Positions 6,054 to 10,921 are shown, numbered from the stretch's first letter. The stretch is 64,000 nucleotides of DNA from an uncultured Bacilli bacterium (GCA_958413985.1 CATYVZ010000003.1:18751-82750), one strand, 5' to 3'. Program-made: numbers and translations. Notes: a model not told the origin generated them from the letters alone.

Positions 6054-6506
6054 TTGAAAAAAATTATTATACCGATAATTTTAATTTTAATCGTTGGGGT
6101 GGTAGTTGCGGTTTTAATGCTAAAACCAAAAGACAGTGACTTAACTAAAATTAAAGTAGCTGAAGTTACCCATAGTGTATTTTATTCACCACAATATGTT
6201 GCTCATGCCTTAGGATATTTTGAAGATGAAGGATTAGATGTAGAGTTAATGCTAGTCCCAGGAGCCGATAAAGTTACCGCTGCTGTTTTATCAGGTGATG
6301 TTCAAATTGGTTTTTGTGGTAGTGAAGCATCAATCTATGTATATAACCAAGGGCAAGAAGACTATTTAGTTAATTTTGCCGGACTTACTAAAAGAGATGG
6401 TAGTTTTATCGTTGCTAGAGAAAACATTGAAAACTTCACTTTAGAAGATTTAAAAGGTAAGACTATTATTGGTGGAAGAATCGGTCATCGGACGATAAAC
6501 TTATAA
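6054..6506 (+). pseudogene. N-terminal fragment of an NMT1/SsuA-like ABC substrate-binding lipoprotein gene, interrupted by a mobile element
   Basis: TTG start with GAAAGGAGG RBS. Signal/TM region then an SBP fold up to ...GKTIIGG. The last 9 codons (RIGHRTINL*) are element DNA. The continuation of the gene is at 10364. Confidence 0.7.
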
Positions 6507-6510
6507 TATT

Positions 6511-7227
6511 TTAATTAGCTAGTAACTTACTTTCACCATTTGTATAATTAATTTGAATTCCATCTTGAACGTTATAAATATATACATTAAAACAGATATC
6601 ATTACATCTATCTTCTACTGAACTTGCTTCAATTTGAACACCACTAATTAATAGATTATTTTCTTCGAAAATTGGTGTTACTCGATATAAAACATGATTA
6701 TTTGTTTCTTTGATATAATTTGCTACTTTGTTTTCAAAAGGTAACATACCATTATTATTCATATTCTTAGTACAAGTAACTAAATTTTTTTCATTTGCAT
6801 TTTCCCCAGTTAATTGATAACCAATCAAATGGCACCTATTATACAAATACCTGCCACTAACAATATCGTATTCAGCCTGTTTCCAACCAGTCGGATAAAT
6901 ATTACTAATACTTCCCCTTTCTTCTGTTGGCATCAGGTCTTGTCCAATGTTAGCAAATGCTACTCCCACTCTTCCAAAAATGTCTAAATCACTATATTTT
7001 TCAAAAGAAGAACTTTGATAATCTTCGTCACTAAAATTAGGTTTATCATCATTTAAAACAACATAAGGTTGTCCACTATATTCTGGTAAATTATCTAAAT
7101 TATAAACTGGTATATTTACCTTCTGAATAAAAAATATGACTGCTATTGCTATTAAAATAAAAATTAGCATTACTACTAAAACAACAGCTAATTTATTTGA
7201 TTTTTGCTTAGTATTAGTTATCTTCAT
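6511..7227 (-). CDS. Membrane-anchored DNA/RNA non-specific endonuclease (EndA/NucA-like, variant NRCHL motif)
   Basis: 238 aa. N-terminal signal anchor (LAVVLVVMLIFILIAIAVIFFI). NRCHLIGYQLTGENANEKNLVTCTKNMNNNGMLPFEN resembles the DRGHL active-site block of EndA-type nucleases. Overlaps the upstream gene by 14 nt. Confidence 0.6.
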   Translation of the reverse strand: MKITNTKQKSNKLAVVLVVMLIFILIAIAVIFFIQKVNIPVYNLDNLPEYSGQPYVVLNDDKPNFSDEDYQSSSFEKYSDLDIFGRVGVAFANIGQDLMPTEERGSISNIYPTGWKQAEYDIVSGRYLYNRCHLIGYQLTGENANEKNLVTCTKNMNNNGMLPFENKVANYIKETNNHVLYRVTPIFEENNLLISGVQIEASSVEDRCNDICFNVYIYNVQDGIQINYTNGESKLLAN

Positions 7228-8401
7228 CGATAATCCTTTTTAACTTATTAATTCTACTAAATAATAGCATACATATTTTATCAATTCTTCTATCAGTTAT
7301 ATGAGTAATATTTTGATATTGATGTAATAGACCATCAAATTCTTCTACTACACCATCTAATTTAGATATGTCAAATCTTTTAATATCTTTGATATGATCT
7401 AACATTTTATCAAAATTATCTACATTATAGAAAAATCTTCCTTGTCCATTGATAATTACATCTTCGTCATTATAGTCTAAAATATTTAAAGACTGTCCAT
7501 TATCAAAAATAGGAGCAACATCTAGCCATTTTAGTGTATTAACATCTCTTATAATACCAAAATTATTAAGGTGTCTATCTTCATTCATAATAATATAATC
7601 CAAAATAAACATGTCTTCTATTTTTTCTCTTGCTTTATCAATTCCATGATTTTCTAAAATGTTAATGTATTCTTCATAAGCATTTTCCTTATTACAATTA
7701 TTATGAAGTATTTGATAGGCTGTAACAAGTTCTGTGTCTTTATTGATAAAGCATGCGCATTTTGAAACCACTTTATTTGCGACAATGCCTATTTGATATT
7801 TTGTATGATAAAAACCTAATCTTTCACAAATCATAGAAGCTAACACTTCATTAAAAGGTTGCATAATTTCGTTTTTAAATCCGCCTTTTAGCAAATATCT
7901 TTTATGATTATCAATAATCCAAGTTTTTTTTAATCTGCCATCAGTAGTATTATTAGGTGAGATTAAACTAATTTCTGTACTATAATCATTCGAATTAGAG
8001 AATGTTGCATTGGTAAAATCTGCCGAATTAAAATCATGTTCAAAAAAATTGATATCTTTATATTCTACATTACTGTCATAGGGTTTTATCCAATATTGAT
8101 CTGATAAAGATAATCCAAAAGCTTTATCTAATAGTTCTTCAGCAGTAGTCACATTTAATTTGGCTAACAACAAATCAAGATCATCACGCAATGATGGAAT
8201 ACCTCTACCTTTATACCACTCTGTTAATTGTTCTAACATCGCATTATCATTTTGGTTATTTTGATATAATTTTTTTATAATAACTGGTGCATAATCGATA
8301 TTTTTAATTTCATTTAATTCGCTAAAACCTTTAAGTACAGTATTATATTCGGCAATTAATACTTCAGTATTCTTATTCATTAATATACATTTCATAATCA
8401 C
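7214..8401 (-). CDS. HipA-like Ser/Thr kinase family protein (catalytic-loop variant)
   Basis: 395 aa. NEDRHLNNFGII matches the HipA catalytic loop (NTDDHLKNFS) but with Lys replaced by Asn. DVAPIFDNGQSL matches the HipA activation loop (LAPAYD). The N-terminus has a HipA-N-like GLSLSDQYW block. Confidence 0.6.
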   Translation of the reverse strand: MIMKCILMNKNTEVLIAEYNTVLKGFSELNEIKNIDYAPVIIKKLYQNNQNDNAMLEQLTEWYKGRGIPSLRDDLDLLLAKLNVTTAEELLDKAFGLSLSDQYWIKPYDSNVEYKDINFFEHDFNSADFTNATFSNSNDYSTEISLISPNNTTDGRLKKTWIIDNHKRYLLKGGFKNEIMQPFNEVLASMICERLGFYHTKYQIGIVANKVVSKCACFINKDTELVTAYQILHNNCNKENAYEEYINILENHGIDKAREKIEDMFILDYIIMNEDRHLNNFGIIRDVNTLKWLDVAPIFDNGQSLNILDYNDEDVIINGQGRFFYNVDNFDKMLDHIKDIKRFDISKLDGVVEEFDGLLHQYQNITHITDRRIDKICMLLFSRINKLKRIIDEDN

Positions 8402-8446
8402 ACCTTCTTTCTATTTATATTTTACCATGTTTTTAATGATTTTTCA

Positions 8447-10006: not shown

Positions 10007-10048
10007 ATTCTAACTCCTTTCTTGGTAAAACACATTTGTATTATAATA

Positions 10049-10153
10049 TTATTTCCTAAAAGAACCAATCTCCAAACAATAATCAATTAAAAACTGCTCT
10101 ATAATATCTTGTAGTGTTTTGCCGTTATCGCTAAAAACGTTTATAATTTTCAT
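10049..10153 (-). CDS. 34-aa ORF with strong RBS immediately upstream of the recombinase gene (MKIINVFSDNGKTLQDIIEQFLIDYCLEIGSFRK)
   Basis: AGGTGG sits 7 nt upstream of the ATG. It lies inside the element near the attR end and its function is unknown. Confidence 0.25.
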   Translation of the reverse strand: MKIINVFSDNGKTLQDIIEQFLIDYCLEIGSFRK

Positions 10154-10363
10154 TATTTACCACCTAGTTAAACTTATGTTTTAAATAAGTTTATAATACT
10201 TATACGTTTAAAACGACATTTCCTTATTAGTCTGTTTTTTATTTTTGGTACCTTTTATATTACCTTTAATGGCGTAATAAATTGTTTACAATCCAAACTT
10301 GATCCAACTTTCTTATATTTATTGTTTTTTTCACATCATAAGTTTTAATGCCGATAAGGTGGA

Positions 10364-10921
10364 ATGCCCGAGATGACATTAGAGTGGACTTTGACTGAAG
10401 CAGGAATTAACCCTAAAACAGATTTAACTATCGATACAAGTATTGAATTTGCTGCTATGTCAGGAGCATTTATCGGCGGAAATGGTGATTTTGTTTCATT
10501 ATTCGAACCAAATGCTCTACAACTAGAAAAACAGGGATATGGATATGTCGTTGCTTCCTTAGGTGAATTAGGAGGAGTCGTTCCATATACTTCATATAAT
10601 ACAAAAAAAAGTTATTTAGAAGCTAATCCTGAAATAATTGAAGGATTCACAAGAGCAATTCAAAAAGGTTTAGATTACGTTCATAGTCATACAGCTAGTG
10701 AAATTGCTGATGTCATATTAGACTATTTCCCTGATACTTCAAGAGATGACTTGGAAACAATTATCCAAAGATATAAAGATATTGATTCATGGTTTACAAC
10801 AACTTACATAACCGAAGAAAACTTTAATCATATTCAAGAAATTGCTGAAAATGCTGGACAATTAGATACTCGTGCACCATACGATAAACTAGTCGATAAT
10901 ACATACTCAAAAAATGAATGA
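10364..10921 (+). pseudogene. C-terminal fragment of the interrupted NMT1/SsuA-like substrate-binding protein gene
   Basis: 185-aa ORF beginning MPEMTLEW. It is in frame with the 6054-6477 fragment through the GGTGGAA junction. The joined protein would be ~328 aa, typical for SsuA/TauA-type SBPs. Confidence 0.7.

Follow-up and report, generated by a model that had tools for sequence, protein, structure and literature searches.

A 3,875-bp serine-integrase element inside a transporter gene of an uncultured, putatively spore-forming Bacilli bacterium: a possible sporulation-type intervening element

The window analyzed here is a stretch of 64,000 nt from the genome of an uncultured Bacilli bacterium (GCA_958413985.1, CATYVZ010000003.1:18751-82750). 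Its ATP-binding cassette (ABC) importer operon contains a gene for an NMT1-family substrate-binding protein (SBP) that lies in two pieces, with the N-terminal fragment starting at 6054 and the C-terminal fragment ending at 10921. Between the pieces sits a small integrative element with four genes: a large serine recombinase (LSR), a 34-aa micro-ORF (open reading frame), a HipA/CtkA-like kinase, and a nuclease (Table 1). An earlier note, made from the sequence alone, had described the SBP gene as split by a recombinase-bearing insert, and both the ORF listing and the Pfam matches bear this out. Its label "ssuA-like" is valid at the superfamily level, since the SBP passes only the NMT1 superfamily family PF09084 (84.5 bits), but not as SsuA itself (TIGR01728: 57.8 bits, against a cut-off of 163.5). 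The open frame of the N-terminal fragment continues into the element up to a stop at 6504-6506, and its product has been recorded as a 150-aa protein in 11 contigs. The neighboring ATPase and permease genes are uninterrupted in the window; other elements hit these genes in sister strains. An Rfam scan of the whole window gave no matches, so no riboswitch or other RNA was found upstream of the SBP gene.

The borders of the element can be read from empty sites of the same species. Three of these (L083, L086, and L087) are 99.1-99.2% identical to the window at the DNA level, have the gene order in common with it, and contain intact operons. In L083, positions 1-6432 correspond to 53-6485 of the window and positions 6430-12993 to 10358-16922 (99.2% identity). 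The breakpoints in L086 and L087 are the same: the window aligns up to 6485 and again from 10358, with a 3-nt overlap (GGT). The empty site, and likewise the excision junction, reads ATTATTGGTGGAAGAATCGGTGGAATGCCCGAG. Precise removal in silico restores the reading frame of the SBP gene, and the join at the true breakpoint yields a protein of 330 aa that is letter-for-letter identical to the public protein P0375. Intact SBP proteins of the same species were also found by cluster look-up, one of which is identical to the in silico repair at 329 of the 330 positions. In related species the empty-site DNA reads GGTGGAAGAATTGGTGGTATGCC, and intact SBP homologues (n = 11, 76-92% identity) read KGKTIIGGRIGGMPEM. 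The occupied allele was found in other assemblies as well, with L069 and L071 being 100% and L070 99.99% identical to the window, and its gene layout recurs in contigs of at least eight samples. Occupied and empty alleles are both present within one species. The GC content shows no contrast between the element and its flanks and is uninformative. Altogether, the cassette is almost certainly a site-specific integrative element of 3,875 bp, inserted through LSR-mediated recombination between a symmetric attP and an attB within the SBP gene, with the exchange taking place at a GG dinucleotide.

These comparisons also correct the borders proposed before. The earlier note had placed the junction at a GGTGGAA shared by both ends (6471-6477 and 10358-10364), while the same-species empty sites put the true breakpoint 12 bp away. 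The supposed insertion repeat is native to the intact gene, which reads GGTGGAAGAATCGGTGGAATG, and is not a target duplication. The size of 3.9 kb and the insertion inside the SBP gene were right, as the insert is 3,875 bp long and precise, but its borders were mis-set. In an alignment with the 11 intact homologues the two fragments do belong to one gene. The proposed join (about 328 aa expected) is indeed in frame, but it gives 326 aa and omits four conserved residues, the GGRI. Instead of the predicted excision product ATTATTGGTGGAATGCCCGAG, the empty sites show the junction given above. The suggested search for uninterrupted alleles in related genomes was successful, both within the species and in its relatives.

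From the true borders, attP was rebuilt as CATCATAAGTTTTAATGCCGATAA-GG-TCATCGGACGATAAACTTATAATAT (in full: CATCATAAGTTTTAATGCCGATAAGGTCATCGGACGATAAACTTATAATAT). The site is symmetric, with ungapped arms equidistant from the center: ATAAGTTT-N5-CCGAT-N2-GG-N2-ATCGG-N5-AAACTTAT. The corresponding attB, ..GGTGGAAGAATC-GG-TGGAATGCC.., spans the codons for GGRI-GG-MPE. The crossover dinucleotide is found at 6483-6484 and 10358-10359. In about 45 related loci attL and attR have only this GG in common, with a different third base (e.g. GGA versus GGC in L016), from which it follows that the shared core is the GG dinucleotide. The true arms lie at 6487-6504 (ATCGG-N5-AAACTTAT) and, as the complement, at 10338-10355. 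In a pattern search this arm motif matched exactly twice in the 64 kb, once at each end of the insert, where 0.01 matches are expected. The inverted repeats that had been noted at the ends do exist in the form of these arms; however, the left repeat as drawn then began in host codons (ATCGG, 6480-6484), and the true arms are not gapped. A gapless repeat finder run on 6300-10600 did not return the att arms among its top pairs; they came from the comparison and the pattern search. As judged from its sequence, the layout is the textbook anatomy of a serine-integrase site.

Some further att-like sequences were observed. At 10171-10209, upstream of the micro-ORF, the 8-mers of the att arms recur in inverted order (AAACTTAT-N7-ATAAGTTT), with no obvious conservation in relatives; they may serve recombinase binding or autoregulation, or be there by chance. 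In many larger relatives (L005 at about 8564-8700, L007, L011, L012, L024, L026, L040, and L059) attL is followed by about 20 nt of A/T and a second complete attP-like site immediately ahead of the LSR stop. The center of this second site is GC-C, AC-C, or TC-C, compared to the usual GG-T. L004, L009, L010, and L050 show a B arm, a variant center, and a P' arm, as if the intervening stretch had been deleted. The element in the window contains nothing like this second site.

The 519-aa recombinase at 8447-10006 confirms the large serine recombinase gene that had been reported inside the insert. It displays the expected Resolvase (PF00239, 6.7e-20), Recombinase (PF07508, 1.5e-23), and Zn_ribbon_recom (PF13408, 4.4e-9) domains, matches the integrase family PHROG 95 (5e-91), and has the catalytic domain of TnpX (2mhc, 2e-25) as its closest solved structure. 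More than 5,900 homologues are known from the search. The ..YIRLS.. motif is retained in homologues, and the dN/dS of the LSR is about 0.2. No Pfam match to DUF4368, the domain that marks the multi-targeting LSR clade (PMC10083194), was obtained. The enzyme therefore falls outside the TndX/TnpX-like multi-targeting clade, and in its family every locus with enough flanking DNA has the same target gene. No further LSR gene is present within the 64-kb window.

The micro-ORF directly upstream of the LSR gene is present in 49 of 55 loci, with ATG or TTG as start codon. In some relatives, the shortest forms included, it overlaps the LSR start by 8-20 nt. An in-frame fusion of micro-ORF and LSR in the minimal relatives was considered and rejected, since the overlap is in another frame. 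The substitution pattern is protein-like (dN/dS 0.09; entropy of the three codon positions 0.37/0.15/0.98), although no family in Pfam or NCBIfam was matched. A resemblance to TnpW was considered and dropped as neither database supported it. Directionality factors of serine integrases are small, mutually unrelated, and hard to recognize, and those known make use of the coiled-coil or second-domain region of the integrase (PMC12286644). The micro-ORF is a candidate accessory or directionality factor, the only such candidate in the core of the family. Upstream of it lies a conserved CATAAGTT box (10171-10178), and 29 of 33 distinct upstream regions contain a CATAnnnT box at -23 to -27 of the micro-ORF and no TATAAT.

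The kinase and the nuclease are the two cargo genes that the earlier note had listed as the only ones; both are there, but the micro-ORF as fourth gene had been missed. The kinase scores 30.3 bits against Pfam HipA_C, just below the cut-off of 30.5, and matches the PADLOC candidate family PDC-M03A (3e-19) and the CtkA structure 3akj (4e-6). Among the element genes PADLOC matched the kinase alone, with no match for the LSR or the nuclease. An AlphaFold (AF2) model (pLDDT 74, pTM 0.78) has CtkA, HipA, and HipT as top folds in Foldseek, and the motifs NEDRHLNNFG and APIFDNG (catalytic loop and Mg-binding Asp) are conserved. The kinase gene has neither a HipB nor a HipS antitoxin gene next to it, and in this respect it does not belong to a HipBA or HipBST system. 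The gene starts 45 nt after the LSR stop, and its end is overlapped by the start of the downstream nuclease gene (14 nt). At least 13 minimal relatives have it directly 3' of the LSR, as their last gene, and it is under purifying selection. The kinase is best described simply as cargo. A kinase homologue of 86% identity was also observed on its own in L077-L081 (e.g. L077 6001-7182), between ftsH and parA/parB and followed by a 168-aa gene; a recombinase was not seen nearby. Among solved structures, the chains closest to the nuclease are those of streptodornase D, EndA, and Spd1. Its hydrophobic N-terminus is predicted, as read from the sequence, to be a membrane anchor. The gene is absent in most relatives.

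The recombinase belongs to a family that is spread over many species. A scan with one genome per species yielded about 50 metagenome-assembled genomes (MAGs) with an LSR of 55-88% identity, labeled as uncultured Bacilli or Tenericutes, Acholeplasma sp. CAG:878, Firmicutes bacterium CAG:822, CAG:884, and Candidatus Onthousia. Wherever the flanking DNA was long enough, the LSR was seen to interrupt an NMT1 SBP gene, always at the same codons; the proposed search for the element in other genomes thereby returned related recombinases at one site in about 50 species. The minimal form of the family (3.0-3.2 kb; at least 13 species) consists of the LSR followed by the HipA-like gene, with the micro-ORF. 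A larger form of 8-9 kb has varied cargo 5' of the LSR (a helix-turn-helix (HTH) protein, a small resolvase, and Macro or ADP-ribosyl-hydrolase genes). The element in the window is the minimal form with an added nuclease gene. The family core is the micro-ORF plus the LSR, with variable cargo.

Identity of the LSR and identity of the host SBP are poorly related (Spearman 0.26, 325 pairs). The LSRs of L019 and L022, for example, are 98% identical with an SBP identity of 52%, and L023 and L020 carry different cargo next to LSRs of 97% identity. As LSR similarity does not track host SBP similarity, the family moves horizontally between hosts and swaps its cargo; these hosts are uncultured gut Bacilli, in which it always lands on the same SBP codons. 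No phage or conjugation functions are evident. The PHROGs matches on the element are limited to integrase and invertase families and, for the cargo, families of unknown function, and IMG/VR contains no relative of the LSR above 30% identity. Relaxase or transfer families were not found in the four element ORFs (Pfam, NCBIfam, PHROGs), so the element is not an integrative and mobilizable or an integrative and conjugative element (IME or ICE). Likewise, genes for capsid, lysis, replication, relaxase, or coupling proteins were found neither in the window element nor in the Pfam listings of the larger relatives. The view that it is neither a classic prophage nor an ICE is in line with these searches.

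Table 1. Features of the split transporter operon, the inserted element, and the germinant receptor operon in the window
Feature	Position	Strand	Remarks
Transporter operon promoter	6000..6026	+	AC 6000-6001, 16-nt spacer, AATATAATA 6018-6026; 27 nt before start codon
SBP N-fragment	6054..6484	+	host codons through GGRI plus GG of next Gly codon
attL	6462..6510		host B arm to 6482, GG 6483-6484, element P' arm T CATCGG ACGAT AAACTTATAATAT
Element body	6485..10357		with one GG makes up the 3,875-bp insert
DNA/RNA non-specific endonuclease, 238 aa, predicted N-terminal membrane anchor	6511..7227	-	PF13930, 87 bits
HipA/CtkA-like Ser/Thr kinase, 395 aa (393 aa from ATG at 8395)	7214..8401	-	cargo
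Large serine recombinase (LSR), 519 aa, TTG start	8447..10006	-	PF00239, PF07508, PF13408
Conserved micro-ORF, 34 aa (MKIINVFSDNGKTLQDIIEQFLIDYCLEIGSFRK)	10049..10153	-	ends 42 nt before LSR start
attR	10333..10380		element P arm CATCATAAGTTTTAATGCCGATAA, GG 10358-10359, host B' arm TGGAATGCCCGAGATG
SBP C-fragment (GG MPEMTLEW...)	10358..10921	+	
Operon remainder	10914..12438	+	ABC ATPase 10914-11657, permease 11650-12438 (Pfam, NCBIfam)
GerA-type spore germinant receptor operon (485, 386, 358 aa)	17436..21123	+	Pfam GerA 1.6e-156, Spore_GerAC_N, Spore_GerAC, Spore_permease

What the insertion means for the host depends on the context of the operon. The intact GerA-type germinant receptor operon downstream marks the host as a putative endospore former. 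A non-sporulating host of the RF39 type had been considered and was rejected when this operon was seen. The vicinity of the GerA operon also contains genes for a UvdE UV endonuclease (13700-14650) and a P-type cation ATPase (14691-17252); farther away, an unrelated gene at 37814-39604 encodes a 596-aa restriction-modification methylase of the Eco57I/MmeI type.

The promoter of the split operon resembles a promoter for sigma-K, the sigma factor of the late mother cell. Of the mother-cell consensus sequences described by Saujet et al., the CATA-type -10 is shared and a -35 AC is found for sigma-K (PMC3789822); a sigma-K example from C. difficile has the -10 CATATAAT with a -35 AC (PMC3789822). 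Among 47 distinct sequences upstream of the SBP gene in relatives, 44 contain [C/A]ATATAATA. In 32 of these 44, AC is located exactly 16-17 nt upstream of the -10, while the other 12, mostly from one clade, are without AC and most of them have GC. None of the SBP upstream regions of relatives has TTG at the sigma-A -35 position. A generic promoter and terminator scan performed no better than on shuffled sequences. In the literature, ytlA, ytlC, and ytlD are listed under sigma-K among the core sporulation genes (PMC3416734), and ytlC of C. difficile is sigma-K dependent. Together they form an ABC importer of the same general type as the split operon. From the promoter similarity and this ytlACD literature we infer that the split operon may be expressed in the mother cell.

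The same operon is also hit by other elements. The ATPase next to the split SBP stops aligning at residue 138-142, right after the ABC signature motif, in about 17 species (loci L011, L020, L021, L028-L030, L032, L034-L036, L038, L039, L045, L052, L058, and L060). Double interruption of the operon appears to be common. All insertion points, those in the SBP gene included, are in invariant motifs (GGRIGGMPE, GDFVSLFEPNAL, GADKV, LSGGMRQRV, and Walker B). No internal stop was found among 83 SBP fragments, and omega is about 0.14 in a nine-species clade in which both SBP and ATPase are interrupted.

Several individual cases were observed. In L082 (7399-12993; around window position 11326), a sister strain of the same species, the SBP is intact and the ATPase gene is cut after LSGGMRQRV, in flanks that are 99.2% identical; the insert contains an unrelated LSR of 531 aa (33% identical to the window LSR) with its own HipA-like gene (60% identical). 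Genes similar to this 531-aa LSR lie 6-8 kb away in L021, L039, and L058. L084 and L085 (from 7457; around window position 11384), of the same species and likewise with flanks of 99.2% identity, also have an intact SBP, with the ATPase cut after LLLMDEPF (Walker B). The first gene of their insert ends in a LysM domain and looks prophage-like. The SBP is in three pieces in L027 (11661-15719), L044 (909-6806), and L052 (2094-6409), where a second, unrelated LSR (25-39% identical) occurs in addition to the GGRIGG insertion, at the GADKV codons in L027 and the GDFVSLFEP codons in L044 and L052. In L002 (8985-11957) an intact SBP lies about 2.5 kb from a truncated ATPase fragment (residues 4-142), with genes for a 224-aa protein, RhuM/Fic, and DUF5301 in between, pointing to the SBP/ATPase boundary as a further site of insertion.

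In light of the GerA operon, the sigma-K-like promoter, and the other elements that split the same operon, the reading tentatively favored here is that of a sporulation-type intervening element, a class that comprises skin, SPbeta, vfbin, and gin; we hold it with a confidence slightly short of even. Every Firmicutes LSR intervening element studied sits in a mother-cell gene and is excised there (PMC5595907, PMC4191935). The split operon, in a spore-forming host, would be of the sigma-K type, active late in the mother cell, and would encode an ABC importer similar to that of ytlA-ytlC-ytlD. The cassette would stay integrated in the germ line. In the mother cell the LSR would excise it, probably helped by the micro-ORF protein as directionality factor, and the excision would rebuild the 330-aa SBP gene exactly. 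Programmed excision of this kind is what we infer from the context, namely the GerA operon, the conserved promoter, the repeated targeting of the operon, the intact fragments, the CATA-type box, and the selection on the micro-ORF. The earlier note had missed the sporulation context (the GerA operon and the sigma-K-like promoter), which alters the likeliest meaning of the insertion.

A number of observations weigh against such a developmental role. The -10 box of the transporter promoter also contains TATAAT, its first base in the window is A and not C, and one such promoter motif per 64 kb is expected by chance, so the match in the window alone is not significant. The position of the CATA box would set the transcription start on the ribosome-binding site of the micro-ORF. 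The operon proteins have only sub-threshold matches of the SsuA/Sao/Tau type in NCBIfam, with no substrate or ytlACD assignment. The attP pattern that marks the excised, circular form has zero matches in JGI metagenome contigs, IMG/VR, and all fetched loci. Intact SBP alleles are common. The loci were found via the LSR, which leaves the purifying-selection result open to ascertainment bias. Finally, the synonymous divergences of the LSR and the host gene are not congruent, and re-insertion into intact alleles could therefore explain why the fragments are intact.

Nearly as likely as the sporulation-type element is a plain selfish insertion. The same cassette, with the same junction, would then knock out a dispensable transporter, and programmed excision would play no part. 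The operon would gather elements because its loss is cheap, with the conserved, motif-coding DNA serving as a portable landing site. Site-specific serine-integrase elements commonly disrupt dispensable genes (PMC5704250), and it is known that diverse LSRs can converge on a single conserved site in coding DNA (PMC10083194). The coexistence of empty and occupied alleles, the predominance of intact alleles in the databases, the location of every insertion point in an invariant motif, and the failure to find the attP junction in JGI metagenome contigs, IMG/VR, and the fetched loci all fit this explanation. It leaves unexplained, however, why a sigma-K-like promoter is conserved at the target of a spore-forming host, why the fragments are intact (with omega at about 0.14 where two operon genes are interrupted), and why the LSR operon has a CATA-type box in place of a vegetative -10.

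All other readings taken together are given a small share at most. It is improbable that the element is the remnant of a prophage, phage satellite, ICE, or IME from which the transfer genes were deleted. The LSR does match a PHROG integrase family, the 8-9 kb relatives contain an HTH repressor-like gene, a small resolvase, and Macro/ADP-ribosyl-hydrolase genes, and a prophage-like insert ending in LysM occupies the neighboring gene of a sister strain. On the other hand, the phage and transfer genes listed above were found neither in the element nor in the Pfam listings of the larger relatives, IMG/VR lacks a relative above 30% identity, and a stable 3-kb form (micro-ORF, LSR, and kinase) exists in at least 13 species. 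An old, fixed, and decaying split, that is, a vertically inherited pseudogene with a dead recombinase, is more improbable still. The near-identity of the occupied allele among the assemblies compared (99.99-100%), its constant layout in at least eight samples, and the occurrence of the same interruption in many species could be taken in this sense, but the same-species empty sites, the incongruent phylogenies of LSR and host, the purifying selection on LSR, micro-ORF, and kinase, and the lack of stops in all 83 fragments contradict it. The earlier version, with GGTGGAA as a 7-bp target repeat, gapped inverted repeats from 6480, and a product of about 328 aa, is virtually excluded: the fragments do join in frame there and GGTGGAA is indeed present at both positions, but the product lacks the four residues conserved in the 11 aligned homologues, the empty sites of the species and its relatives keep GGTGGAAGAATCGGTGGAATG, and the exact 330-aa repair is in public data (no match was sought for the 326-aa product).

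A broader form of the sporulation-type reading, which joins these observations, is doubtful, though it can be stated in full. The minimal cassettes (micro-ORF, LSR, and optional cargo; 3-9 kb) would be developmental DNA switches for a sigma-K-dependent importer operon of uncultured, spore-forming gut Bacilli. Two to three independent elements, located at three SBP positions and at the ATPase signature motif, would all be excised in the mother cell, similar to the heterocyst nif/fdxN/hupL elements. The 34-aa protein would then be the smallest known directionality factor of a serine integrase. The HipA-like kinase is found with two unrelated LSR lineages and would here count as a functional partner, not as chance cargo.

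Independent of its role, the locus provides an exactly delimited natural LSR system (attP, attB, GG core, a 519-aa integrase, and a candidate 34-aa partner) with dozens of natural variants, useful for integrase toolkits and for studies on directionality control. It also shows that a single operon can accommodate several unrelated elements. For annotation it comes with a warning, as transporter genes that one would take for pseudogene fragments in these MAGs may be complete genes in pieces. If excision is tied to sporulation, the operon would be a new target, the element by far the smallest among developmentally rearranged genes, and such biology would extend to uncultured gut Bacilli.

In its mechanism the cassette does not stand out among serine-integrase elements inserted in coding sequences. 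Such insertions have been catalogued at scale (PMC10083194) and reviewed for IMEs (PMC5704250). The Firmicutes serine-integrase IMEs (e.g. in rumA; PMC5704250) and the LSR/attB catalogue of Durrant et al. (PMC10083194) share with it the single LSR, the very short flanking repeats, the insertion in conserved coding sequence, the targeting of one gene by diverse LSR lineages, and a recombinase without DUF4368, which is the site-specific class. IMEs differ in their relaxase or mobilization function, which was not found here, so the element is not an IME by definition. Neither the NMT1-family SBP target nor the recurrent kinase cargo was found in the literature searched.

Other known systems resemble single aspects of the element. 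Tn4451/Tn4453 (TnpX) and Tn5397 (TndX) are also small non-phage elements moved by one LSR, with TnpX providing the closest solved catalytic domain; according to a review, TnpX needs no directionality factor. However, these enzymes belong to the DUF4368 clade and act in a transposon-like manner with low specificity on GA dinucleotides, and their elements carry mobilization or resistance genes, in contrast to the GG dinucleotide, the one target, and the absence of a DUF4368 match here. Among the cyanobacterial heterocyst elements (fdxN element/XisF, nifD, and hupL), XisF is the best NCBIfam match of the LSR, but with 92.9 bits against a cut-off of 375 the LSR is not a member of that family. As in the operon described here, several independent elements reside in one functional unit, and those of the heterocyst are all removed in a terminally differentiated cell. 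Phylum and developmental program are different. The cargo kinase has its fold and catalytic motifs in common with HipA, HipT, and CtkA kinases but differs in that an adjoining HipB or HipS antitoxin gene is missing.

The gin element in gerE of Bacillus cereus ATCC 10987, with the LSR GirC and the directionality factor GirX (PMC5595907), is likewise a non-phage element that splits a coding sequence by means of an LSR in a spore former. The att inverted repeats around a central dinucleotide, the precise excision that restores the gene, the variation between strains, and the lack of transfer genes of its own are also shared. Gin is, however, much larger (31 genes and three recombinases, compared to four genes in 3.9 kb here and relatives of 3 kb), and its target is a regulator and not a transporter operon. 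Excision and directionality factor are proven for gin, whereas here they are predicted. The skin element (sigK; SpoIVCA) and SPbeta (spsM; SprA/SprB) of Bacillus subtilis and skinCd of C. difficile (PMC4191935, PMC5499854, PMC5025042) are LSR-mediated interruptions of late-mother-cell genes with a small, separate directionality factor, to which the sigma-K-like promoter of the target corresponds here. These elements are prophages or their relics of 14-134 kb, while phage genes were not found in the present element and the candidate partner has only 34 aa and is encoded directly upstream of the LSR. The element is closest in kind to gin, skin, and SPbeta, and is set apart from them by its four-gene size, its target, its 34-aa candidate partner, and the stacking of elements in one operon.

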